Counted from the first letter of the whole stretch, positions 1-20,410 are shown. The stretch is 59,326 nt of DNA, filler included, from 5 parts of 5 records of this genome joined end to end with filler, not necessarily neighbours in it, one strand, 5' to 3'. Made by a program: numbers and translations. Notes: generated by a model not told the origin, from the sequence alone.

Positions 1-1
1 G

Positions 2-610
2 GGCACGCTGACCATCTTCCGTGGTCTGGTGTTCGTCATCTCGGGCGGCGCCTGGGTGAACGCGGCGCAGATGAGCCCGGACTTTATCGGACTGCAGCGC
101 GTGATTTTCCTGGGGCTGCCCGTCTTGAGCTGGTTCGCCATTGTCACTGCTGTGCTGTTCTACATCCTGATGACCCGCACGCCGCTCGGCCGCTCGCTCT
201 ATGCCATCGGCGTCAACCCGACGGCCTCGGTCTATACCGGCATTGATGTGGGCAAGACCAAGTTCCTGGCCTTTACCATTGCTGGCGCCGTGGCCGGGCT
301 GTGCGGCTATCTGTGGATCTCGCGCTACGTCATCGCATCGGTCGAAGTGGCGGGCGGCTATGAGCTGACCATCATCGCGGCCTGTGTGATTGGCGGCGTC
401 TCGATTGCCGGTGGCATCGGCACCGTGCCCGGCGTGCTGCTGGGGGCGATCTTCCTGGGCGTGATCAACAATGCCCTGCCGGTGATCAATATCAGCCCGT
501 TCTGGCAGATGGCCATTTCTGGCTCCGCCATTCTGCTCGCCGTAGTGCTCAATGCACGCGGTGAAGCCAGCAAGGGCCGCATCATTCTCAAGAAGGCGGA
601 AGCCGCATGA
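2..610 (+). CDS. rhaP: Sugar (rhamnose) ABC transporter permease, 5'-truncated
   Basis: Frame is open from the window start (GTLTIFRGLV...). RbsC-type motifs RTPLGRSLYAIGVN and ELTIIAACVIGGVSIAGG. Lies upstream of a second permease and rhamnose mutarotase. Confidence 0.8.
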   Translation, partial: GTLTIFRGLVFVISGGAWVNAAQMSPDFIGLQRVIFLGLPVLSWFAIVTAVLFYILMTRTPLGRSLYAIGVNPTASVYTGIDVGKTKFLAFTIAGAVAGLCGYLWISRYVIASVEVAGGYELTIIAACVIGGVSIAGGIGTVPGVLLGAIFLGVINNALPVINISPFWQMAISGSAILLAVVLNARGEASKGRIILKKAEAA

Positions 611-1605
611 CCGACACCGCTGCGACTGGCCGCCAACTGCCAGACCGTCTGGACAACCCGCTCAAATCCGCTGTGCTCAGCTGGGAAAGCCTGCTGGTGC
701 TGGTGGCCGTGGTCATCTTCATCGTCAATTCCTTTGCCTCGCCCTATTTTCTCAATGCCTGGAGCCTGAGCGACCTCACGTTCAACTTCACCGAGAAGGC
801 ACTGATCGCGCTGGCCATGGCTCTGCTGATCATTTCAGGCGAGATTGATCTGTCGGTGGCTGCCATCATCTCGCTGGCCTCCACCCTGATGGGACTGGCC
901 CTTCAATATGGGGCGGATACGCCCGTTCTGGTGCTGGTGGGTATTGGCGCGGGCCTGGCCTGTGGTGCGGTCAACGGGGCACTGGTCACAAAGCTCAAGC
1001 TGCCCTCGATCGTGGTCACCATCGGTACCATGAGCCTGTTTCGCGGCATCAGCTTCATCATTCTGGGCGATCAGAGCTTCAAGGGTTATCCCAAGAGCTT
1101 TGCCTGGTTCGGTCAGGGCTATGTCGGCTGGGTCATCTCGTTTGAGCTGGTGCTGTTTCTGGTCTGCGCGGTAATCTACTGGGTGCTGCTGCACCGCACC
1201 AATTTTGGCCGTCGGGTCTTCGCCATCGGCAATAATGATGTTGCCGCGCGGTTCTCCGGCGTGCGGGTTGATCGCATCAAGTTCATCCTGTTCTGCCTGA
1301 CCGGACTGATGAGCGGTGTGGCCGCTGTTCTGCTCACCGCCCGCCTGGGCTCTACCCGGCCCTCCATCGCCGAAGGTTGGGAACTTGAAGCCATCACCAT
1401 GGTGGTGCTGGGCGGTGTCTCCATTCTGGGCGGCGCAGGGTCCATCATAGGCGTGGTGCTGGCAGCCCTGATCATGGGGCTGGTGACCTTTGGCCTTGGC
1501 CTGCTCAATGTGCCGGGCATCGTCATGTCGATCTTTATCGGCGGCCTGCTGATCGTGGTCATCGCGCTGCCCATTCTGTTCCGCATGTGGAGGCAGCGCG
1601 CATGA
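607..1605 (+). CDS. rhaQ: Sugar (rhamnose) ABC transporter permease
   Basis: Motifs [21 protein letters not shown] and [22 protein letters not shown] overlap with both neighbours. Confidence 0.8.
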
Positions 1606-1937
1606 TCATCACCGACGGCGACTACGAAAAGCATGCCTTCAAGATGCACCTCAATCCCGGGCAGACGGCCGAGTACAAGAAGCGGCACGACGAGATTTTC
1701 CCCGAGCTGGTCGATCTGCTGCACCAGGCCGGGGTGAAGGATTATTCGATCCACCTCGACGAAGAGACCAATACCCTTTTCGGGGTGCTCTGGCGGCGCC
1801 GGGATCACACCATGGCCGACCTGCCCGCGACGGCGGTGATGCAGCGCTGGTGGGCTCACATGGCCGATATCATGGCGACCAATGCGCAGAACGAGCCCAT
1901 CGCCACTGATCTGGTGCCCCTGTTCTGGATGAAATGA
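1602..1937 (+). CDS. rhaM: L-rhamnose mutarotase
   Basis: [19 protein letters not shown] and [12 protein letters not shown] are typical RhaM/RhaU motifs. ATG at 1602 overlaps the rhaQ stop. Confidence 0.93.
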
Positions 1938-1941
1938 ACCG

Positions 1942-3075
1942 CTAGCGGTTCTCGGCGATGGCGCCGATCAGCGCTGCGCCCAGCGTGGCCCCGCCACCAT
2001 CGCGCGGCCAGCACAGCCAGAAATTCATGTCATGGCGCCGGGGCAGGGCCAGTTGCGCCAGTTCCTCGCGAATGCGGCTGACCGAGGTTTGGGGCAGGAT
2101 CGACACAAAGCCGTGGTGCAGCACCAGATTGAGAATGACTGGAATGGAGTCGATTTCGATCATCTGCAGCGCGTCTCGCTCGATGTCGCTGAGATAGGTC
2201 GCAAGAATTTCGTTGATTGATTGCCGCAGGCCCGAGCGCGCGCTGGGCACCGCCAGCGGTGCGCCCAATAGCGCATCGCCAATGCTGGCGTGCCCCGCGC
2301 GAACGCCGACCACCGCCAATGGCGACGTGGCGACGATCTCGCCATCCAGGTCGGGGGGGAGGCGTGCGGTATCGAGGAAGGCCACATCGAACAAGCCGCT
2401 CTTGAGACCCGCCATAAGCTGGTCGGCCGTGGTCGAACTGACCAGCAGTGGGGCGCGGGGACGCTCGGCCAGCCAGCGCGCCGCCAGATTGGCCAATTGC
2501 CGGGCAATCTCGCTCTCATAGCCCAGTGGAATGACCGAGCCGAGCCGCGCCGTTGCTGCTGCCTTGCGAAACCGCTCATCGGAGGCCCCTGACAGTTCCC
2601 GCCAGACAGCCAGCAGGGCTTCGGCCCGCATCTGCAACGTCTTGCCCTCGGGCGTCAGTCGCGAGCCGCCACTGCTGCGCTGCAATAGTGTCTGGCCCAG
2701 CGTGGCTTCGAGTTGTGCCAGTTGGCGCGTCAGCTGCGGCTGTCCCAGCCCCATGGTGCGTGCCGCGCGCCGGATACTGCCCACACTGGCCACCTGAATG
2801 AAGCGCTCAAGCGCGTCGAGTTTGATGGCGTGATGCGGCGACACGGCCTGCGCCAGTTGTGCTGCCTGTTTGATGGCCGGCTCCAGCCGCACCGCTTCAA
2901 GACTGGCGACCAGGCCTGAGCCGGCGCGCTCGATTAGCCCGATCGAGACTTCTGCTTCAAAGCGGGCGATAGCGGCGGCAATTGTGGACGCGGGCCGGCT
3001 CAGCACTCTGGCGGTGCCGCGCACGCTGCGGGTCCGCAGAACGGAATCGACGGCGATCAGCGTAGCGGTATCCAT
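1942..3075 (-). CDS. LysR-family regulator with two tandem N-terminal HTH domains
   Basis: HTH1 aa ~1-60 (SVRGTARVLSRPASTIAAAIARFE), HTH2 aa ~84-145 (SIRRAARTMGLGQPQLTRQLAQLEATLGQTLLQRS), then a LysR substrate-binding domain. Confidence 0.88.
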   Translation of the reverse strand: MDTATLIAVDSVLRTRSVRGTARVLSRPASTIAAAIARFEAEVSIGLIERAGSGLVASLEAVRLEPAIKQAAQLAQAVSPHHAIKLDALERFIQVASVGSIRRAARTMGLGQPQLTRQLAQLEATLGQTLLQRSSGGSRLTPEGKTLQMRAEALLAVWRELSGASDERFRKAAATARLGSVIPLGYESEIARQLANLAARWLAERPRAPLLVSSTTADQLMAGLKSGLFDVAFLDTARLPPDLDGEIVATSPLAVVGVRAGHASIGDALLGAPLAVPSARSGLRQSINEILATYLSDIERDALQMIEIDSIPVILNLVLHHGFVSILPQTSVSRIREELAQLALPRRHDMNFWLCWPRDGGGATLGAALIGAIAENR

Positions 3076-3136
3076 CTGCCTGCCTTTCGAGCAGACTATG
3101 GTGGTGCACAGAATGAGCGCATAGCCTGTTCAGTAA

Positions 3137-3150
3137 TTGGGATATCCCAA
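3137..3150. promoter_or_regulatory. Palindromic candidate operator between the LysR and lyase genes
   Basis: Perfect palindrome TTGGGATATCCCAA containing T-N11-A, inside the ~104-bp divergent intergenic region. Confidence 0.5.
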
Positions 3151-3179
3151 CATGGCTGACTATCCAATAGCGTGCCCCC

Positions 3180-4739
3180 ATGAATGATCTGGCCATGACA
3201 GTGCGCGGCGACCCCATCATCCTCAACGGCAAGCCGCTGAGCTTTGCCGACATTGCGCGAATTGGCCGTCGCTCGGCCCGTCTGGTTGCCAATGACGACG
3301 CGCTGGTGCGCGTGGCAAACGCCCGTACGGTGGTCGAAGACGCAATAGCCGGCGGACAGGCCGTTTATGGAGCCACCACCGGCGTCGGCGCCATGAAGGA
3401 TGTCGAGTGGACCCCCGACCAGCTCGATGCGTTCAATCTCGGGCTGGTGCGCGCGCACCATTTTGGCACGGGTGATGCCTTTTCCAGTGAGATCGTCCGC
3501 ACCGCAATGGCCATTCGCGTCAATATGGCGCTGACCGGACGCGTTGGCTGCACCACCGATCTGGTTCACGCCTATCTTGCTTTGCTGTCCACCGACGTCG
3601 TGCCGGTCGTGCGGCGCACCGGCTCGATCGGCTGTGCCGATATCGGCCTGATGGGCCAGATCGGTGCGGTGCTGACCGGTGCAGGGGAGGCCACCTTCAA
3701 CGGTCAGCGCCTGCCCGCAGCCGAGGCGCTCTCACAGGCCGGTCTGAACGCCTTTCGACTGGCGCCACGCGATAGTCTGGCGTCGATCTCCACCAACGCC
3801 GTCGGCTATGCCGCGGCCGCCAACGCCATCCGCGAGGCCGCCAGAACCGTGCGTGTCATGTTGGCGACCGGCCTGACCACGGCAGGGGCGCTCGGCGCGT
3901 CGCGCGATCCGTGGAAAGCGGTGGCTCATGTTGGAACCGAACGCGAGGCGGGGATCGGGGCCTGGCTGTATTTCAATGCGATGGGCTGGGACTGGCCCAA
4001 TGCCACCCATATTCAGGATCCGCTTAGCCTGCGCATGATGAGCCAGGTTTTTGCCACCGGCTTTGAAACCCTGGTTGCCGCTGGCAAGACATTGCTGGCT
4101 GCCACCGGTCGGACGGATGACAATCCGGTCGTGGCTGGCGGGCAGGTGCTGACCTCTGGCGGTTCGCTGCCGCTGGATGTGACGGTCTTCATGCAAACCG
4201 CGCAATTGGGGCTGGCCCATATCGCCCGCAATTCATTTAACCGCTGCGTATTGCTGGGCAATGGTGGCCGGCGTGACCTGCCGGTCAATCTGGTGGCGCC
4301 CGGATCGATCGCCACCGGCTTTGGCCCCATCATCAAACTGGCTGGGGAACTGTTTGCCCGCGTGCTGAGCATGACCAACCCCATTTCAGCCAACTCCATG
4401 GTGGTGGCGGGTGGGCTGGAGGATGAAGCGGCTTTCCTGCCACTGGTCGTGGAACGCTTTGAGCGCCAGGTCATGGCGCTCAACCGCCTGTCAGCACTCG
4501 AAGGCATACTGGCGGCGCAGGCCATGGACATCTCGGGCGACCGTCCGGGTAATGTGCCGGGCATCATCTACCAGCTCGTGCGTCAGCACGCTGAATACTA
4601 CACGGTGGATCGGCCACTATCGGCCGAAGTTGAGGCTGTCGAACACGCACTCGGTTCTGACGCAATTATGAACGAACTAATCGCTCACTCAGCGATTATG
4701 GAATTGGACGAGTTTTTCGCCCTGGGCCCTGTCGAATAG
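3180..4739 (+). CDS. Aromatic amino-acid ammonia-lyase (HAL/PAL) superfamily protein, MIO-less, ergothionase-like
   Basis: Tyr-loop VYGATTGVGAMKD, GSIGCADI in place of GSVGASGDL, QDPLSLR, DDNP and GGLEDE. Confidence 0.85.
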   Translation: MNDLAMTVRGDPIILNGKPLSFADIARIGRRSARLVANDDALVRVANARTVVEDAIAGGQAVYGATTGVGAMKDVEWTPDQLDAFNLGLVRAHHFGTGDAFSSEIVRTAMAIRVNMALTGRVGCTTDLVHAYLALLSTDVVPVVRRTGSIGCADIGLMGQIGAVLTGAGEATFNGQRLPAAEALSQAGLNAFRLAPRDSLASISTNAVGYAAAANAIREAARTVRVMLATGLTTAGALGASRDPWKAVAHVGTEREAGIGAWLYFNAMGWDWPNATHIQDPLSLRMMSQVFATGFETLVAAGKTLLAATGRTDDNPVVAGGQVLTSGGSLPLDVTVFMQTAQLGLAHIARNSFNRCVLLGNGGRRDLPVNLVAPGSIATGFGPIIKLAGELFARVLSMTNPISANSMVVAGGLEDEAAFLPLVVERFERQVMALNRLSALEGILAAQAMDISGDRPGNVPGIIYQLVRQHAEYYTVDRPLSAEVEAVEHALGSDAIMNELIAHSAIMELDEFFALGPVE

Positions 4740-4820
4740 AATTTGCGATCTGGCTCATTTCTACCAAGACGCTACGTTAGGGACAGCCGGGTAACAGACC
4801 CGGAGAAAACGGAGAAACCA

Positions 4821-5732
4821 ATGCGCCTCACATCCACGCTTTTGAGCGCAGTCGCTGCGCTCGCCATTTCCGTCACGGCCGCAAACGCTCAAGTGGTTGT
4901 ATCGTCCAAGATCGACACTGAAGGTGGCGTTCTGGGCAACATCATCAAGCAGGTACTTGAGGCCAACGACATTGCCGTCGAAGACCGCATCCAGCTTGGT
5001 GGCACGCCCATTGTGCGTCAGGCCATCACCGCGGGCGAGATCGACATCTACCCCGAATATACCGGCAACGCCGCCTTCTTCTTCGAAAAGGCCGATGATC
5101 CGCTCTGGAACGACGCTGCACTGGCTTATGCCGAAGCCGCCAAGCTCGATTTTGAGGCCAACAATATCGTCTGGCTGACCCCATCGCCCGCCAATAACAC
5201 CTGGGCCGTGGCCATCCGGTCCGACGTTGCCGAAGCCAATAGCCTGAACACCTTCAGCGAATTCGGCGCCTGGGTTGCTGGCGGTGGCGAGGTCAAGCTT
5301 GCCGCATCGGCCGAGTTCGTCAATTCGCCCGCCGCGCTGCCAAAATTCCAGGAAGTCTATGGCTTCTCCTTGACCCCTGATCAGCTCATCACGCTGTCGG
5401 GTGGCGACACCGCGGCCACCATTGCCGCTGCCGCCCAGCAGACCAATGGCGTCAATGCCGCCATGGTCTATGGCACCGATGGCGGCATTGCCCCGTCCGG
5501 CCTCAAGGTGCTCGAGGACGACAAGGGTGTGCAGCCCGTCTATCAGCCTTCGCCGATCATCCGCGCTGACGTGTTGGCGGAATACCCGCAGATCGAAGAA
5601 CTGCTCAAGCCCGTCTTTGAAGGCCTGACGCTCGAAGTGCTCCAGGACCTCAATGGTCGCGTGCAGGTCGGTGGCGAAGCCTCTGCCGCCGTGGCAACCG
5701 ACTATCTGACTCAGGGCGGTTTCCTGCAGTAG
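4821..5732 (+). CDS. osmF: Osmoprotectant/betaine-type ABC substrate-binding protein (OsmF/YehZ-like)
   Basis: Signal peptide, VVVSSKIDTEG, IDIYPEYTGN, ANNTWA and MVYGTDG. GGAGA RBS before ATG 4821. Confidence 0.85.
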   Translation: MRLTSTLLSAVAALAISVTAANAQVVVSSKIDTEGGVLGNIIKQVLEANDIAVEDRIQLGGTPIVRQAITAGEIDIYPEYTGNAAFFFEKADDPLWNDAALAYAEAAKLDFEANNIVWLTPSPANNTWAVAIRSDVAEANSLNTFSEFGAWVAGGGEVKLAASAEFVNSPAALPKFQEVYGFSLTPDQLITLSGGDTAATIAAAAQQTNGVNAAMVYGTDGGIAPSGLKVLEDDKGVQPVYQPSPIIRADVLAEYPQIEELLKPVFEGLTLEVLQDLNGRVQVGGEASAAVATDYLTQGGFLQ

Positions 5733-5740
5733 GCCGAACC

Positions 5741-5765
5741 GGGGTGAGGGCAACGCGCTCACCCC
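5741..5765 (+). terminator. Intercistronic hairpin after the SBP gene (mRNA stabiliser or partial terminator)
   Basis: GGGGTGAG-N9-CTCACCCC stem with no U-tract. Confidence 0.45.
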
Positions 5766-5832
5766 ATTCCTTGCTCCGGCGGAGTAGGGGCCCTTTCAAG
5801 GCGAAGCATCTACTGACCGTTCTGGAGCCAGC

Positions 5833-7026
5833 ATGAGCATAGCCGACACCCCCACTGCCGCCACGCGACCCGTTAGGTTCGCGCTCGACAAGCTCGGCGT
5901 CATGATCGCCCTGATTGCTGCCGCCGGCGCCGCGCTACCCTTCGCCCTGTTCCGCGCCAACCGCATCGTGCTCGGCGAAACCAAAGCCCTCTTCGAAGCA
6001 CTCCCCGGCCAGCTTACTGCGCTGCTCATACTCGCATTGCTCACCGGTGTCGTCGTGGCGCTGCTGCGCTTTGCCCCACTGACCAAACTGATCGTTGGGT
6101 TTTTCATCCTCGCCGTGCTGTTCGTCCTGATGGGCCAATCAGCGGCCTATCTGACGCCCGAAGGTAATACCTTCGCCCGCGTCTCGCCCGGCGCCGGTTT
6201 CTGGCTGCTGGTCTTCGCCTTCGCCTTGCTGGTGACCGACGCCCTGACCCGGCTGCGCTTCAAGCCGCTGACACGCATTGCCATTCTGATCGCGGTCGCT
6301 GCCGCCATGGCGCTGCTATTGTGGAGCGGCGGCTGGGATCAGCTTTCCATGCTCAAGGAATATGCCAATCGCGCCCCGGCCTTCTGGTCCGAAGCCCAGG
6401 CGCATCTGGTGCTGGCCTTCGGCTCGGTCGCCATCGCCACGCTGGTCGGCCTGCCGCTGGGCATTCTTTGCTACAAGGTCAAACCCCTGCGCGCCGGCGT
6501 GCTCAATGTCCTCAACATCGTCCAGACCATCCCCTCAATTGCCCTGTTCGGCCTGCTGATCGCCCCACTGGCCTGGATCGCCGCCAATATTCCGGGCGCC
6601 TCGGCCATCGGCATTTCGGGCATTGGCACGGCGCCCGCTCTGGTGGCGCTATTCGCCTATTCGCTGCTGCCCATCGTCTCCAACACCGTGGTGGGCCTGC
6701 AAAGCGTCTCGCCCGCTGCCATTGATGCGGCGCGCGGCATGGGCATGACCGATTTCCAGCGCCTCAGGGCGGTTGAACTGCCGCTGGCCTTCCCGGTGAT
6801 CCTGACCGGCATCCGCATCGTGCTGGTGCAGAATATCGGCCTGACCACCATTGCCGCGCTGATCGGCGGCGGCGGCTTTGGTGTCTTCGTGTTTCAGGGC
6901 ATTGGCCAGACGGCCATGGATCTGGTGCTGCTGGGGGCTGTGCCGACAGTCGCCCTGGCTTTTGCTGCCGCTGTGGTGCTCGACGCCCTGGTGGAAATGA
7001 CCGCGCGCGAGGGGAAGCGCTCATGA
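5833..7026 (+). CDS. yehY: ABC transporter permease (YehY-like)
   Basis: Long hydrophobic N-terminus, QTIPSIALFGLL, and EAA loop DAARGMGMT...VELPLA. Confidence 0.8.
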   Translation: MSIADTPTAATRPVRFALDKLGVMIALIAAAGAALPFALFRANRIVLGETKALFEALPGQLTALLILALLTGVVVALLRFAPLTKLIVGFFILAVLFVLMGQSAAYLTPEGNTFARVSPGAGFWLLVFAFALLVTDALTRLRFKPLTRIAILIAVAAAMALLLWSGGWDQLSMLKEYANRAPAFWSEAQAHLVLAFGSVAIATLVGLPLGILCYKVKPLRAGVLNVLNIVQTIPSIALFGLLIAPLAWIAANIPGASAIGISGIGTAPALVALFAYSLLPIVSNTVVGLQSVSPAAIDAARGMGMTDFQRLRAVELPLAFPVILTGIRIVLVQNIGLTTIAALIGGGGFGVFVFQGIGQTAMDLVLLGAVPTVALAFAAAVVLDALVEMTAREGKRS

Positions 7027-7958
7027 TTGAGATCGACGACCTCACCAAGAGCTATGACGGCACCGTGGTGGTGGACCATGTGACTCTGACCATTCAGCCC
7101 CACACCATTTGCGTGGTGGTCGGCACCTCGGGCTCGGGCAAGACCACGCTGATGCGCATGATGAACAAGCTGGTGACGCCCACTTCGGGCACAGTGCGCA
7201 TCGATGGTCAGGATATCGCCGATATCCCCGCCTATGAACTGCGCCGCCGCATCGGCTACGCCATTCAAGGGCATGGTCTGTTTCCCCACCGTACCGTGGG
7301 CCAGAACATTGCCACCGTGCCCAAGCTGGCCGGCTGGGACAAGGCGCGCATCGCCCGCCGCGTCGACGAACTGATGGCGCTGTTCCAGCTCGATCCCGGC
7401 CAGTTCCGCGATCGGCTTCCGCACGAGCTCAGCGGCGGCCAGCAGCAGCGCGTTGGCGTAGCCCGTGCTTTGGCGGCCGAGCCCAATATCCTGCTGATGG
7501 ACGAGCCCTATGGCGCGCTTGATCCGGTGATCCGCGCCAAGGCACAGGAAGATTTGCTGGCCATTCAGCGCAAATTCGGCACCACGGTCGTGCTGGTTAC
7601 CCACGACATGGAAGAGGCCATTCACCTCGGCCACACTATCGCGGTGATGGACGAGGGAAAGCTGCTGCAATGTGCAGCGCCCGCCGAGATCATCGCCAAT
7701 CCTGCAACGCCCTTTGTCGCCGAACTGATCGGCACCAGCGAGCGTCCCTTCCGCCTGCTCTCGCTGTCCAAGGTTGCCGATCACATTGAGCCCGGCGAGG
7801 CCCCCGGCGAGCCCATCGCTGCACAAGCCTCCCTGCGTGATGCCTATGCCGAGCTGCTCTGGTCGCGTCGGCCCGCTCTGCCGGTCCTGCGCGATGGCCA
7901 GATTGTCGGTCAGGTCACGCTGGACGCGCTGGCCAAACTGGCGGCCAGACCACAATGA
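7023..7958 (+). CDS. yehX: ABC transporter ATP-binding protein (YehX-like)
   Basis: Walker A GTSGSGKTT, LSGGQQQRVG, Walker B LLMDEP, C-terminal CBS-like remnant. Confidence 0.88.
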   Translation: MIEIDDLTKSYDGTVVVDHVTLTIQPHTICVVVGTSGSGKTTLMRMMNKLVTPTSGTVRIDGQDIADIPAYELRRRIGYAIQGHGLFPHRTVGQNIATVPKLAGWDKARIARRVDELMALFQLDPGQFRDRLPHELSGGQQQRVGVARALAAEPNILLMDEPYGALDPVIRAKAQEDLLAIQRKFGTTVVLVTHDMEEAIHLGHTIAVMDEGKLLQCAAPAEIIANPATPFVAELIGTSERPFRLLSLSKVADHIEPGEAPGEPIAAQASLRDAYAELLWSRRPALPVLRDGQIVGQVTLDALAKLAARPQ

Positions 7959-8713
7959 CCACGGGTAATCTCCTCCGACTGCTGGCGTTTCTGGTGCTGG
8001 GCCTGTTTCTGGCCAGCCCCGAGCTGTTCAGCGGCTTCTTCAGCCTGTTCACCAAAAACAGCCAGCCCGCCATCTACAATCAGGGCAGCCTGCTCGACAT
8101 CACCCTCAATCACCTGGCCATCGTGGCCGCCGCGACCGCAGCCTCCACCATCATCGCCGTGGGCCTGGCCATCATCGTAACCCGGCCGTTTGGCGCCGAA
8201 TTCCTGCCGCTGTCGCGCAGTCTCGCCAATGTCGGGCAGACCTTTCCGCCCGTGGCCGTGCTGGCGCTGGCGGTGCCCATGCTGGGCTTCGGCACCGCCC
8301 CAACCCTGGTGGCGCTGTTTCTCTACGGTCTGCTGCCCATTTTCGAGAATACGCTGACCGGCCTGACCAATCTGCCATCCGCGGTGACCGACGCGGCCAA
8401 GGGCATGGGCATGACGGGCTGGCAGCGTCTGCTCAAGGTCGAACTGCCCCTGGCCCTGCCGGTCATTCTGGCCGGTATTCGACTTTCCGTGGTCATCTCG
8501 CTGGCCACTGCCACCATCGGCTCGACCGTCGCTGCACGGACCTTGGGGGAGGTCATCATTGCTGGCCTGCTTTCGAGCAACACCGCCTTTGTCTTGCAGG
8601 GCGGGCTGATCGTCGGGGTGCTGGCCGTGTTGATTTATGACGGCCTGTCGGCGCTGGAACGCTTTTTGATGGCCCGTACCGGGCAATTGGGCCGGGCGGC
8701 GGCCACATCATGA
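7955..8713 (+). CDS. yehW: ABC transporter permease (YehW-like)
   Basis: GQTFPPVAVLAL and EAA loop DAAKGMGMT...VELPLA. Confidence 0.8.
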   Translation: MTTGNLLRLLAFLVLGLFLASPELFSGFFSLFTKNSQPAIYNQGSLLDITLNHLAIVAAATAASTIIAVGLAIIVTRPFGAEFLPLSRSLANVGQTFPPVAVLALAVPMLGFGTAPTLVALFLYGLLPIFENTLTGLTNLPSAVTDAAKGMGMTGWQRLLKVELPLALPVILAGIRLSVVISLATATIGSTVAARTLGEVIIAGLLSSNTAFVLQGGLIVGVLAVLIYDGLSALERFLMARTGQLGRAAATS

Positions 8714-8733
8714 TACAGCTGGGGGGCTGAACC

Positions 8734-10092
8734 ATGTCTGACTTCGATCTCGTCCTGGCGGGCACTGTTGTGCTGCCAGATCTGATACTCGACCATGGCT
8801 ACGTCGCGATACGCGATGGCAAGATCGTCCATGTCGGCGAAGGCACGCCGCCCCATGCCCATGAACGCCATGAACTGGGCGACGCGCTGATCCTGCCCGG
8901 CGCCATCGACGCCCAGACCCATTCGCTCAGCCAGCGCGACCAGGAAGACTTCATCTGGTCCACCCGCTCGGCCGCTGCCGGTGGTGTCACCACCATTGTC
9001 GATATGCCCTATGACGAGGGCAATCTGGTCGCTTCAGCGGCCGCAGTGCGCACCAAGGTCGCGCTGGCCCAACCGCAGGCCCGGGTGGATTTCGCGCTCT
9101 ATGGCACCGTGGTGCCCGATGAGGGCGCCAGCCGCATCGCCGAGCAGGTTGAAGCCGGTGTCGCTGCCTTCAAGTTCTCCACCTTCGGCACCGATCCGGT
9201 CCGCTTCCCGCGTATCCCCGCAGCTTTGCTCGAGGAGTGCTTTGCGGCTATTGCGCCTACCGGACTGACCGCCGGCGTCCATAACGAAGATGACGAGGCC
9301 GTGCGCGCGGCAATGGCCAGGGTCAAGGCGCTTGGCATAACTGACTTTCGCGCCCATGGCCTGAGCCGCCCACCGCTGACCGAATTACTGGCCAGCCTGC
9401 AAATCTATGAAACCGGTGCCGCCACCAGTTGCCCCGCCCATGTTGTGCATTGCTCGCTCGGCCGGGGCTACGACATTGCCCGGTCCTATCGCGAGCAGGG
9501 CTTTGCAGCCACCATCGAATGCTGCATCCATTATCTGACGCTGGACGAGGAAAATGATGTCGCCCGGCTCGGCGGTAAAGCCAAGATCAACCCGCCCATC
9601 CGTCCGCGCGCCGAGGTTGAAAAGCTCTGGGAGCATGTGCGGGCCGGTAATGTCACCATGGTCTCGACCGACCATGTGAGCTGGTCGGAAAACCGCAAGA
9701 CCAACCCCGACATGCTGGCCAATGCCTCAGGCGTACCGGGCCTTGAGGTTATGGTGCCGCTTTTCATCAAGGGCGCCTTGGAGCGCAATATCCCGCTGAC
9801 CTGGGCCGCGAAGCTGATGGCCGAAAACCCGGCAAGACACTTCCGCATCGAACATTCAAAAGGCGCACTCAGCGTCGGCAAGGATGCCGACATCACCGTG
9901 CTGTTCCCGCGCTCCAAACGCTACGACGCTGCCGAGAGCGGCCACAACGTGGTGGGCTGGTCGCCCTATAACGGCATCGAACTGCCCTGGACGGTCGGCC
10001 TGACCTATCTGCGCGGCCAGCAGGTTTTCGACGGCACCAATGTCGGCGAGCCGGGTTTCGGAAGGTTCGTGCGGCCGGAGGTAGGCGCGTGA
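8734..10092 (+). CDS. Cyclic amidohydrolase (allantoinase/dihydroorotase/hydantoinase family)
   Basis: PGAIDAQTH, AAAGGVTTIVDMP, AAFKFS, GVHNE, HVVHCS, KINPPIR, STDH, GKDADI. The last base of the stop codon coincides with the adapter sequence. Confidence 0.85.
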   Translation: MSDFDLVLAGTVVLPDLILDHGYVAIRDGKIVHVGEGTPPHAHERHELGDALILPGAIDAQTHSLSQRDQEDFIWSTRSAAAGGVTTIVDMPYDEGNLVASAAAVRTKVALAQPQARVDFALYGTVVPDEGASRIAEQVEAGVAAFKFSTFGTDPVRFPRIPAALLEECFAAIAPTGLTAGVHNEDDEAVRAAMARVKALGITDFRAHGLSRPPLTELLASLQIYETGAATSCPAHVVHCSLGRGYDIARSYREQGFAATIECCIHYLTLDEENDVARLGGKAKINPPIRPRAEVEKLWEHVRAGNVTMVSTDHVSWSENRKTNPDMLANASGVPGLEVMVPLFIKGALERNIPLTWAAKLMAENPARHFRIEHSKGALSVGKDADITVLFPRSKRYDAAESGHNVVGWSPYNGIELPWTVGLTYLRGQQVFDGTNVGEPGFGRFVRPEVGA

Positions 10093-10108
10093 GATCGGAA
10101 GAGCGTCG
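10092..10108 (+). other. Untrimmed Illumina TruSeq adapter
   Basis: Exact AGATCGGAAGAGCGTCG at the contig end. Confidence 0.93.
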
Positions 10109-10208
10109 NNNNNNNNNNNNNNNNNNNNNNNNNNNNNNNNNNNNNNNNNNNNTTAATTAATTAANNNNNNNNNNNNNNNNNNNNNNNNNNNNNNNNNNNN
10201 NNNNNNNN
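10109..10208. other. Artificial contig linker
   Basis: 44 N + TTAATTAATTAA (stops in all six frames) + 44 N. Confidence 0.98.
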
Positions 10209-10209
10209 A

Positions 10210-10473
10210 GCCAAGATCAATTCGGGCGATCTGATCGCGATTTCCGAAGTGGTCCGCGATCTGTACCGCTCAGAAGAGCAGCCTGAGCAGTCCTATTCGG
10301 AACGCCAGTTGTTCGAGCAGGCCATGGATCGCATGAGCCGTGAGATCGGCGCCGTGCGCAAGCTTACCCTCACCGAGACGGTGCAGCTTATCGAAAAGCA
10401 GCTCGCCAAGAGCCCCAAGCGCACCAAGACCGATGCGGCTGAAGCCGAAAGCGACGAGGAAGCTGCCGCATAA
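10210..10473 (+). CDS. carD: CarD family transcriptional regulator, C-terminal fragment
   Basis: AKINSGDLIAISEVVRDLYR...EQSYSERQLFEQA is the alphaproteobacterial CarD C-terminus. Truncated by the contig start. Confidence 0.9.
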   Translation, partial: AKINSGDLIAISEVVRDLYRSEEQPEQSYSERQLFEQAMDRMSREIGAVRKLTLTETVQLIEKQLAKSPKRTKTDAAEAESDEEAAA

Positions 10474-10495
10474 GCGTTTGCGTCAGACCGATTGG

Positions 10496-10526
10496 AAAAA
10501 GGCCGGTGCAGACACCGGCCTTTTTT
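10496..10526 (+). terminator. Rho-independent terminator (likely bidirectional)
   Basis: AAAAAGGCCGGTG-CAGA-CACCGGCCTTTTTT downstream of carD. Confidence 0.9.
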
Positions 10527-10614
10527 GTGTTCAGGTAAACAACATTCGCCTTCGGGGTGACTCGGCCCCGACGATCTGGTCAAAGCCGGGGGATGCGAAA
10601 ATTTCGGTGACGCC

Positions 10615-10947
10615 ATGCCCAACTATGCCTTTCTTGCCATTGCCATTATTGCCGAGGTGATCGGCACCAGTGCGCTCAAGGCGTCGGAGGGGTTTTCCAA
10701 CCTGCTGCCCTCGATCCTGGTGGTGGTGGGCTATGGGGTGGCGTTCTACTGTCTGTCGATGACCCTGCGCACGCTTCCGGTGGGCATTGCCTATGCCGTG
10801 TGGTCGGGCGCCGGCATTGTGCTGGTGTCCCTGCTAGGCTGGATGCTCTACGGCCAGAAGCTCGATCTCTGGGCCATGCTGGGCATCGGCCTGATTATTT
10901 CTGGCGTGGTGATCCTCAACCTCCTGTCAAAATCGAGCGTGCACTGA
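10615..10947 (+). CDS. emrE: SMR family efflux protein, EmrE/QacE type
   Basis: 110 aa with 4 TM segments. [15 protein letters not shown] carries the membrane Glu; [11 protein letters not shown]. Confidence 0.88.
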
Positions 10948-19751: not shown

Positions 19752-19816
19752 CAACTTTTGGTTGCATTTTTTCAATAGTGGGCTTAACACAACTCATAGT
19801 TGTTAGGAGAGCCGCT

Positions 19817-20410
19817 ATGATTATCCATGTAGAAGAGCGTGATCGCGCACGCTACGCCGATGAACTCCATCAATATTTCAAGCTGCGTAAGAAGGTTTTT
19901 TACGACGAGCTAAACTGGGACGTCATTGCCGATGGCGACATTGAGCGTGACCTGTTGGATGATGCCCCATGCACCTACACACTTTATTTGGGCGATGATG
20001 GCACCGTTCAAGGCGGCGCACGGCTCATTCCCACAACACAAACAACATTGCTGGAAATGGCTTTTGACGGGCTTGTTCCCGAAGATATTTCCTTCAGATC
20101 GCCCACAATCTGGGAAAGTTCGCGTTATTGCGTCAATCATGACACCGCAAAAAGCCGCATGTCTTCCGGCGCAAAAAGAGCGACCCTCGGCATTTCCATC
20201 GGCAATGTTGATTACGCTCTAGCCAACGGTATCACCCATTACATCGCAGTCGTTGAGGCCCGCCTCTTCCGCTTTTCACAAAACTACAATGCCGACGTTG
20301 AAATTTTGGGCGAAAAGAGAATTGGCGATTGCGACGTTATCTGTGCGCTTTACACCATGTCTGAAAAGACACTGGACACGATTAAATATCTGCGCCCAAT
20401 GGTGACATGA
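19817..20410 (+). CDS. luxI: Acyl-homoserine-lactone synthase
   Basis: LRKKVFYDELNW, ERDLLD, GGARLIPT and WESSRYCV. AGGAG RBS before ATG 19817. Confidence 0.93.
   Translation: MIIHVEERDRARYADELHQYFKLRKKVFYDELNWDVIADGDIERDLLDDAPCTYTLYLGDDGTVQGGARLIPTTQTTLLEMAFDGLVPEDISFRSPTIWESSRYCVNHDTAKSRMSSGAKRATLGISIGNVDYALANGITHYIAVVEARLFRFSQNYNADVEILGEKRIGDCDVICALYTMSEKTLDTIKYLRPMVT

Follow-up and report, generated by a model that had tools for sequence, protein, structure and literature searches.

A divergent LysR-type gene and an embedded YehZYXW-type transporter in the promoter-proximal part of a predicted Devosia ergothioneine catabolic operon

The stretch of DNA analysed here, called the window, is a scaffold of 59,326 nucleotides made of five contigs joined by N44-TTAATTAATTAA-N44 spacers at positions 10109, 15333, 35948 and 53506, the first of which spans 10109-10208. 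Positions 1-10108 are a single contig that we assign by sequence to Devosia; homologues of its lyase are 73-94% identical to it, and those that carry a name are mostly from Devosia. Between 1942 and 10092 a minus-strand gene for a LysR-type regulator precedes six plus-strand genes, and we interpret this unit as part of an operon for ergothioneine catabolism (ert) that includes a transporter of the ATP-binding cassette (ABC) type. An earlier note on this DNA had listed the same divergent LysR gene and six co-oriented genes, three of them overlapping, and our open reading frame calls reproduce that gene set and its positions. The features are these:

1942..3075, minus strand: LysR-type regulator of 377 aa whose N-terminal winged helix-turn-helix (wHTH) is duplicated, divergent from the other genes (Pfam HTH_1 twice, plus LysR_substrate)
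3127..3148, plus strand: candidate LysR operator TGTTC-N9-GATATCCC with core palindrome TTGGGATATCCCAA, 32-53 nt before the lyase start
3160..3174, plus strand: further conserved box, CTATCCAATAGCGTG, located after the operator and ahead of the lyase start
3180..4739, plus strand: predicted ergothionase (ErtA-type trimethylammonia-lyase), cytoplasmic, 519 aa (PF00221, solved relative 6s7j, motif residues)
4821..5732, plus strand: solute-binding protein, YehZ/OsmF orthologue, proposed ergothioneine binder (NF049931, solved relatives)
5833..7026, plus strand: long permease, YehY-like, 397 aa, transport domain at residues 206-388 (BPD_transp_1)
7023..7958, plus strand: ABC ATPase, YehX-like (ABC_tran, TIGR01186 proV subfamily)
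7955..8713, plus strand: short permease, YehW-like (BPD_transp_1)
8734..10092, plus strand: ErtD, hydantoin-5-propionate amidohydrolase, complete (NF058538, QxH motif, C-terminus as in relatives)
10093..10108, no strand: Illumina adapter letters followed by the N spacer, where the operon is cut

All seven reading frames are intact, and adjacent genes overlap by 4 nt at two junctions (7023-7026 and 7955-7958). A scan of 1500-10108 returned no sigma-70-like promoter site (1.7 expected) and eight terminator-like sites (6.0 +/- 2.5 expected), all of them intragenic and none in the three intergenic gaps. This result is weakly in line with a single transcript and is not evidence alone. The view that the genes form one unit with the divergent LysR gene stands.

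The lyase matches PF00221 over residues 20-468 (profile positions 1-465 of 466, E 2.8e-81), and its best solved relative is the ergothionase of Treponema denticola (6s7j, E 4.8e-55), ahead of the histidine ammonia-lyases. In place of the Ala-Ser-Gly triad of the 4-methylideneimidazole-5-one (MIO) group it carries GSIGCAD at residues 148-154, which aligns with SSIGEGD of 6s7j and also with the modified-residue position of the histidine ammonia-lyase 7tqr; 81 of 83 readable lyase rows, and every readable row that is ert-linked, show the pattern GSIG[CT]AD. Tyr63 (VYG motif) aligns with the catalytic Tyr of 6s7j, and Lys386 (PIIKLAG) aligns with the Lys of IQKTF, which is Lys384 when both numbers are mapped by hand count on the printed alignment. 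Of 86 readable lyase rows 84 retain this Lys, the two exceptions being true HutH paralogues, and every readable ert-linked row has it. According to the accessible part of a 2026 preprint on Shewanella trimethylammonia-lyases (10.64898/2026.04.22.720169), Lys384 of ergothionase is required for thiolate binding and is replaced in lyases of sulfur-free betaines, and the catalytic Tyr takes the beta-proton. The protein had been taken for a MIO-less histidine ammonia-lyase homologue that eliminates trimethylamine, and the 6s7j match, GSIGCAD and Lys386 all agree with that assignment: it is, by prediction, an ergothionase that converts ergothioneine to thiourocanate and trimethylamine. No NCBIfam model naming the lyase was matched, every named source labels it a histidine or aromatic amino-acid ammonia-lyase, and the Devosia/Rhizobium clade to which it belongs has no specific name in any listed source. 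The lyase start carries no signal peptide; the substrate must therefore be brought into the cell.

The product of the last gene scores 766.2 bits against the NF058538 equivalog (cut-off 600; residues 4-448, covering profile positions 1-446 of 446), which identifies it, as had been suspected, as the hydantoin ring-opening enzyme of ergothioneine catabolism, ErtD. Its Q61-T-H63 aligns with the H-x-H of the D-hydantoinase 1nfg and the later Lys, His, His and Asp are kept. Among homologues 68 of 72 read QxH and four HxH, and QxH is found in 60/60 ert-linked ErtD orthologues. The earlier note had pointed to three components that deviate from their families. The deviations are real, but QxH and GSIG[CT]AD at the frequencies given here are the norm of their subfamilies rather than peculiarities of the locus, and the two-HTH form of the LysR protein, described below, is likewise a family trait. 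One observation counts against reading too much into the ErtD score: an ErtD paralogue linked to HutH in relatives also passes NF058538, at 737 bits, so the model is a marker of the reaction rather than of an ergothioneine context.

That context comes from related genomes. The chemistry of the five-step ergothioneine pathway is known; the pathway (ErtA-E) was reportedly described in Burkholderia sp. HME13 by Muramatsu et al. and is said to have been reconstituted in vitro by Beliaeva, Leisinger and Seebeck in 2021. We mapped ten proteins (tblastn) onto 80 loci of species-representative genomes that surround lyase homologues. Forty loci are complete, with the lyase, four transporter genes, ErtD, ErtE, ErtC and ErtB, and a further 18 start with the same layout and are cut early. 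Eleven have lyase-ErtD-ErtE-ErtC-ErtB and no transporter (nine Rhizobium-like, one Pelagibacterium and Devosia ureilytica), five match neither pattern and four are too short for judgement. The remaining two tell against a uniform operon: ErtD is missing from L006, and in L004 the lyase and transporter are followed by 5.7 kb without an ert gene. The five misfits comprise L059, an artefact of the rule; L065, whose lyase is broken; and L066, L071 and L076, where only the lyase is present. In the 40 complete loci ErtE, thiohydantoin desulfurase (ErtC) and thiourocanate hydratase (ErtB) follow directly after ErtD in this order. The hydratase is the third gene downstream, so that the urocanase-like gene which the earlier note failed to see may indeed lie past the contig end. 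All three proteins exceed their NCBIfam cut-offs in four scanned loci (L002, L027, L072 and L042), where the hydratase reaches 1030-1055 bits as against 739-743 on the S-methyl model and the desulfurase 585-605 as against 269-285.

These scores bear on the substrate. The earlier note had spoken of a new catabolic system for a betainised or otherwise modified aromatic amino acid that may not be ergothioneine itself; hercynine, S-methyl-ergothioneine, N-methyl-hercynine and hypaphorine would be candidates. MIO-less lyases of other specificity do exist, as the available portions of two sources describe (SO_3299, acting on N(pi)-methyl histidine betaine, and Swoo_3913, acting on histidine betaine; 10.64898/2026.04.22.720169; 10.1101/2025.08.13.670108), and the lyase of the window is distant from the solved ergothionase and bears no NCBIfam name. 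However, the thiolate Lys is kept throughout the readable ert-linked rows and the enzymes with sulfur-free substrates described in the accessible preprint text do without it, the hydratase and desulfurase of the relatives pass the thio models and fall far lower on the S-methyl ones, and a substrate free of sulfur would leave a desulfurase without a purpose. We consider a substrate other than ergothioneine very unlikely, and we drop the term new for the catabolic system, every testable enzyme of which passes a curated equivalog of the known ert pathway.

The contig ends at the amidohydrolase gene, as the earlier note had seen, where the adapter at 10093-10108 gives way to the spacer. The ErtD stop itself is natural, with a C-terminus like that of the relatives and the last nine bases identical in Devosia alba (L027). 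One might suppose that the unit is a remnant here, consisting of lyase, transporter and ErtD only, much as in L004 (Devosia epidermidihirudinis), which has lyase and transporter and no further ert genes within 5.7 kb. Nothing lies beyond ErtD in the window, and a search of its other four contigs found no ErtE, ErtC or ErtB. Because the window lacks these three genes, we infer rather than observe a full pathway in this strain, with the three genes beyond the contig end, and their absence is a point on the side of a remnant. Yet the seven genes are intact; the ErtD stop lies in GTGA, where relatives have ATGA or TTGA, and in L002 the ErtE frame starts 4 nt before the ErtD stop. In two other public runs, moreover, contigs of close variants extend past 10093 with native sequence that resembles the pre-ErtE spacer of L027, and 40 of the 42 loci with an embedded transporter and sufficient reach carry all four downstream genes. 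A remnant is extremely unlikely on this evidence, and the stretch is very probably the promoter-proximal part of the known Devosia ert operon, cut after ErtD by an assembly break.

In the X5 run, too, a 16-kb contig ends about 115 nt beyond that point, and therefore a repeat just past ErtD may break assemblies. A C-rich, repeat-like spacer of the CCCTCACTCCCTCCCC type lies 3' of ErtD in close relatives (window 10093 onward; L027 17040-17200), and several short-read assemblies stop no more than about 115 nt from it. Long contigs of four runs, labelled seawater, algae, marine and one coded organism, carry close variants of the stretch, and the ergothioneine-breakdown trait is thus present in communities so labelled.

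Two further observations concern ErtD. In L006, L029 and L067, all from Devosia, no ErtD lies between yehW and ErtE (the gap in L006 is about 20 bp); the HutH-linked paralogue may stand in there. Two ert-bearing genomes have a second, paralogous cluster (L088 of G003, 6383-10750, and L087 of G047) with a true histidine ammonia-lyase that exceeds the HutH cut-off, an Opp/Dpp-type ABC system, a two-HTH LysR gene, and ErtE-like and ErtD-like genes over the ert cut-offs (59-61% and 45% identical, respectively). This cluster may be a histidine route through hydantoin-5-propionate.

The transporter genes occupy the middle of the unit. The reading frame of the solute-binding protein spans 4743-5732 and its likely start is the ATG at 4821, with GGAG 8-9 nt upstream and a signal peptide after it. 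The protein scores 484.5 bits against the NF049931 OsmF equivalog (cut-off 400), so that the OsmF-type assignment made earlier is upheld. Its solved relatives at E ~1e-135 are Agrobacterium and Brucella proteins (4nd9, 5uve and, at 5.3e-136, 5teu), followed by E. coli OsmF (4wep, 1.8e-99); 5teu is Brucella abortus YehZ according to the accessible text of PMC5894108. The gene order is that of E. coli K-12 osmF-yehY-yehX-yehW, with identities of 53/42/48/50% respectively, and by sequence the transporter is a true YehZYXW/OsmF orthologue. In 3/3 Devosia genomes searched the YehZ homologue is single.

Three kinds of linkage connect this transporter to ergothioneine. First, in at least 60 of 76 judgeable loci it lies between ertA and ertD. 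It is embedded likewise in G047, an alphaproteobacterium whose lyase is only 48% identical. Second, in Ochrobactrum quorumnocens A44 a yehWXYZ-LysR unit is divergent from ertADECB; the plasmid collection gave three lyase matches, and one of these, in Ochrobactrum, was informative. Third, in 6/6 Rhizobium genomes the exact operator pattern occurs genome-wide exactly twice, one copy lying before ertA and the other about 380-390 bp before yehZ, and the ert and yehZ units are about 120 kb apart or on another contig. In Rhizobium sp. BK196, for example, there are two exact matches in 6.0 Mb, the second in the yehZ/LysR intergenic region about 120 kb off. The reversed pattern, searched exactly in G004 as a control, had 0 matches.

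Co-occurrence points the same way. YehZ is present in 15/15 tested genomes with an ergothionase homologue as against 13/401 sampled Alphaproteobacteria, where the 15 genomes are not independent, coming from perhaps six lineages, and the class sample is rich in small genomes, which inflates the contrast. ErtD exceeds its cut-off in three genomes of the class-wide sample, and 3/3 are YehZ-positive. A phylum-wide sample of 401 genomes held six with thiourocanate hydratase, including the centre genome and one already analysed; the four new ones are three Rhizobium-like clusters and G675. Linkage outside Alphaproteobacteria was seen nowhere in this sample, which does not exclude such linkage.

G675 has the only lyase-less ert cluster. 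In it (L111, 4064-12685) a LysR gene of the two-HTH type is divergent from a polar-amino-acid-type ABC system, ErtD, ErtC and ErtB, with no ErtE nearby and a related operator between LysR and the ABC genes; a search of the genome yielded no homologue of YehZ or of the lyase. The organism may take up thiourocanate or a thiohydantoin rather than ergothioneine. This single case fits a betaine-type importer that is needed only where the betaine is the substrate.

An alternative is that the ABC system is a general low-affinity transporter for glycine betaine and other osmoprotectants, or a stress transporter with other cargo, and that adjacency to ert genes is irrelevant to its substrate. In E. coli and Brucella, YehZYXW is said to be controlled by general-stress sigma factors, and a link between yehZ and oxidative stress in E. 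coli has reportedly been described (Dumitrescu 2022, by way of a M. avium paper, unconfirmed). A number of findings favour such a role and weigh against an ergothioneine importer. The protein passes the OsmF equivalog, NCBIfam names it a glycine-betaine binder, and all names among the 120 matches listed are betaine, osmoprotectant or generic ABC names. Weak binding of glycine betaine is published: as far as the available text of PMC5894108 goes (citing Herrou 2017 and Lang 2015), the affinity of YehZ for glycine betaine is millimolar, and proline, choline, ectoine and carnitine are not bound. As the sole copy per genome, YehZ must also serve the general role of its family. The transporter is absent from 11 ert clusters. 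Of the 13 YehZ-positive genomes in the class sample, 10 gave no ergothionase with the query used, the sole match there, at 28% identity, being probably a histidine ammonia-lyase. E. coli K-12 and S. meliloti pSymB, too, carry yehZYXW with neither an ert gene nor a two-HTH LysR gene nearby. Since YehZ occurs without ergothionase, the cargo of the family may be wider or different, or ergothioneine may be taken up for other uses, and the link from ergothionase to YehZ is one-directional.

A general osmoprotectant role leaves several things unaccounted for, however. Chance is unlikely to have produced all three linkages, the embedded transporter, the divergent neighbour and the two-site operator in 6/6 Rhizobium genomes; the 15/15 co-occurrence with the lyase against the 13/401 background goes unexplained; and the one lyase-less ert cluster uses another transporter type in a genome without YehZ. 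Weak betaine binding is also what a mis-assigned ligand would look like, ergothioneine being a betaine itself. On balance we regard a general betaine or stress transporter as unlikely and think that the system probably imports ergothioneine, a prediction from genomic context. In S. meliloti pSymB (L114, 8844-15789) the stand-alone yehZYXW genes are flanked by a divergent oxidoreductase containing flavin adenine dinucleotide and by an OsmC-family protein, a neighbourhood with a redox-stress flavour.

The regulator carries HTH_1 (80.1 bits) and LysR_substrate (60.5 bits) domains, and its first 84 residues alone pass HTH_1 (27.7 bits, cut-off 26.6); the second HTH_1 stretch is at 86-145. In an AlphaFold2 model (mean predicted local distance difference test score, pLDDT, 80.5) two consecutive three-helix-plus-hairpin units are seen at residues 3-57 and 86-140, with block means of 90-96 in the units and 75-77 over residues 41-60. 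Nine residues within 1-61 are invariant among 27 homologues, so the N-terminal extension is conserved, and two-HTH homologues of 370-430 aa occur across Hyphomicrobiales. Such a gene adjoins ertA or yehZ in other genera; the LysR protein beside yehZ in BK196, the one of the six Rhizobium genomes in which it was examined, has two HTH_1 stretches.

The operator pattern has a single match in the window (0.07 expected). LysR-bearing Devosia, Pelagibacterium and Rhizobium conserve it 30-90 bp ahead of ertA, and in Ochrobactrum related copies precede both ertA and yehZ. The CTATCCAATAGCGTG box is also single in the window (0.00 expected), is kept in 8/8 LysR-bearing close relatives shown, and would be an activation site or a promoter element. 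Two results weigh on the other side. A LysR gene stands beside ertA in only 17 of 75 loci, and LysR-less Devosia G003 has no exact operator match. With these in mind, we still think it likely that LysR regulates the ert unit of the window. Directly upstream of the LysR gene, at 607-1937, are a sugar ABC permease and an L-rhamnose mutarotase. In many relatives the sugar permease and mutarotase abut the lyase with no LysR gene between, and LysR is therefore a variable insert at this junction. On a plasmid of Rhizobium sp. SL42 (L099, 13605-14774) a two-HTH LysR gene, absent from the gene table of the plasmid collection, lies between ertA and ertD on the opposite strand, with operator-like copies before both.

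The scheme that we find likely overall, an ert operon with its own importer and a LysR switch, builds on the computed protein families, gene order and operator copies; the transporter ligand, the role and inducer of the regulator and the three further genes of this strain are what we infer. A periplasmic YehZ/OsmF-type protein would bind ergothioneine, which the YehY and YehW permeases and the YehX ATPase would import. In the cytoplasm the MIO-less ergothionase would strip trimethylamine to leave thiourocanate, and thiourocanate hydratase and thiohydantoin desulfurase, encoded beyond the contig end and present in relatives, would produce hydantoin-5-propionate. Ring opening by ErtD would give N-carbamoyl-glutamate, from which ErtE, also beyond the contig end, would release glutamate. 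The divergent two-wHTH LysR protein would bind TGTTC-N9-GATATCCC before ertA and turn the unit on, with ergothioneine or an early intermediate as its inducer.

For the pathway itself the outcome is mostly a correction of annotation, in which genes labelled as lyase and transporter would belong to ergothioneine breakdown, a process that sets free trimethylamine, sulfide and glutamate. The route itself is known; what looks new, in the literature searched, is YehZYXW within an ert unit, the tandem-wHTH LysR protein and the two-site regulon. That literature held no link between YehZYXW and ergothioneine, though an earlier mention is possible in Beliaeva 2021, Muramatsu, Herrou 2017 or Dumitrescu 2022, and no description of the tandem-wHTH LysR or its two-site regulon, of which prior mention is likewise possible. 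The context supplies a specific ligand hypothesis for the YehZ family, of which the 4wep and 4nd9 proteins are already crystallised. Among LysR-type proteins, the commonest family of regulators in bacteria, the tandem-wHTH form is a conserved variant that has gone unexplored.

A bolder extension, which we put forward tentatively and rate as somewhat more doubtful than probable, is that the whole YehZYXW family, from E. coli and Salmonella to Brucella and rhizobia, imports ergothioneine (a histidine betaine) and is a second uptake system independent of EgtUV. If so, YehZYXW would feed catabolism where ert genes exist and supply an antioxidant in carriers without them, and the two-wHTH LysR would be an ergothioneine-responsive regulator of a small ert plus yehZYXW regulon. 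Confirmation would make bacterial ergothioneine uptake far wider than the carriers of EgtUV. It would also explain why a "betaine" transporter, YehZYXW, reportedly gives no osmoprotection (Lang 2015).

One contig of the window stands apart. At 15433-35947 the G+C content is 50.9%, as against 61-64% in the other four contigs, and third-position G+C is much lower. This contig carries core genes (ftsZ with an alphaproteobacterial C-terminal extension, ftsA, lpxC, bamD, recN, ligA and a PcrA/UvrD helicase gene) and may come from an organism other than Devosia, in which case the scaffold or bin would be mixed. At 19778-20410 it also encodes an acyl-homoserine-lactone synthase homologue of the TraI/LuxI type that falls below the curated cut-offs.

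Compared with known systems, the unit shares the enzyme set of the five-step ert pathway, with ergothionase and ErtD in the window and the other three enzymes in relatives. To this set Devosia adds a four-gene YehZYXW-type importer between ertA and ertD and, upstream, a two-wHTH LysR gene with a conserved operator. Its lyase has in common with T. denticola ergothionase (6s7j, 6s7q) an aromatic lyase fold without Ala-Ser-Gly and the aligned Tyr and thiolate Lys, whereas the sequences are distant (E 4.8e-55) and SIGEGD there corresponds to SIGCAD in Devosia. The regulator resembles other LysR-type proteins in its HTH_1, linker helix and LysR_substrate domain, its divergent gene and its intergenic dyad operator; those proteins have about 300 aa and a single wHTH, while the Devosia protein has 377 aa and an extra wHTH-plus-helix before the canonical one. 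The YehZYXW systems of E. coli and B. abortus are orthologous to that of Devosia and agree with it in gene order and sizes, but the E. coli K-12 and S. meliloti systems stand without ert genes or a two-HTH LysR gene, the Devosia system lies inside a catabolic operon, and that of Rhizobium shares its operator with the ert operon. The function proposed for the Devosia system is also that of EgtUV in Streptococcus pneumoniae and Helicobacter pylori, and the binding proteins belong to one broad class. In EgtU the solute-binding domain (EgtUC) is part of the transporter, presumably fused to the permease, whereas the Devosia binding protein is free, with a signal peptide and two permease genes. EgtUC chains match it at E 8.6e-26 to 1.1e-23 and rank behind the choline and nicotine-sensor binders; by sequence the Devosia protein lies outside the EgtU family and is not close kin of EgtUC. 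EgtU itself is described, in the accessible part of PMC9732360, as a Pfam OpuAC protein of cluster F-III with an aromatic cage for trimethylammonium. If the ligand of the Devosia protein is ergothioneine, this specificity would have arisen independently of EgtUV.

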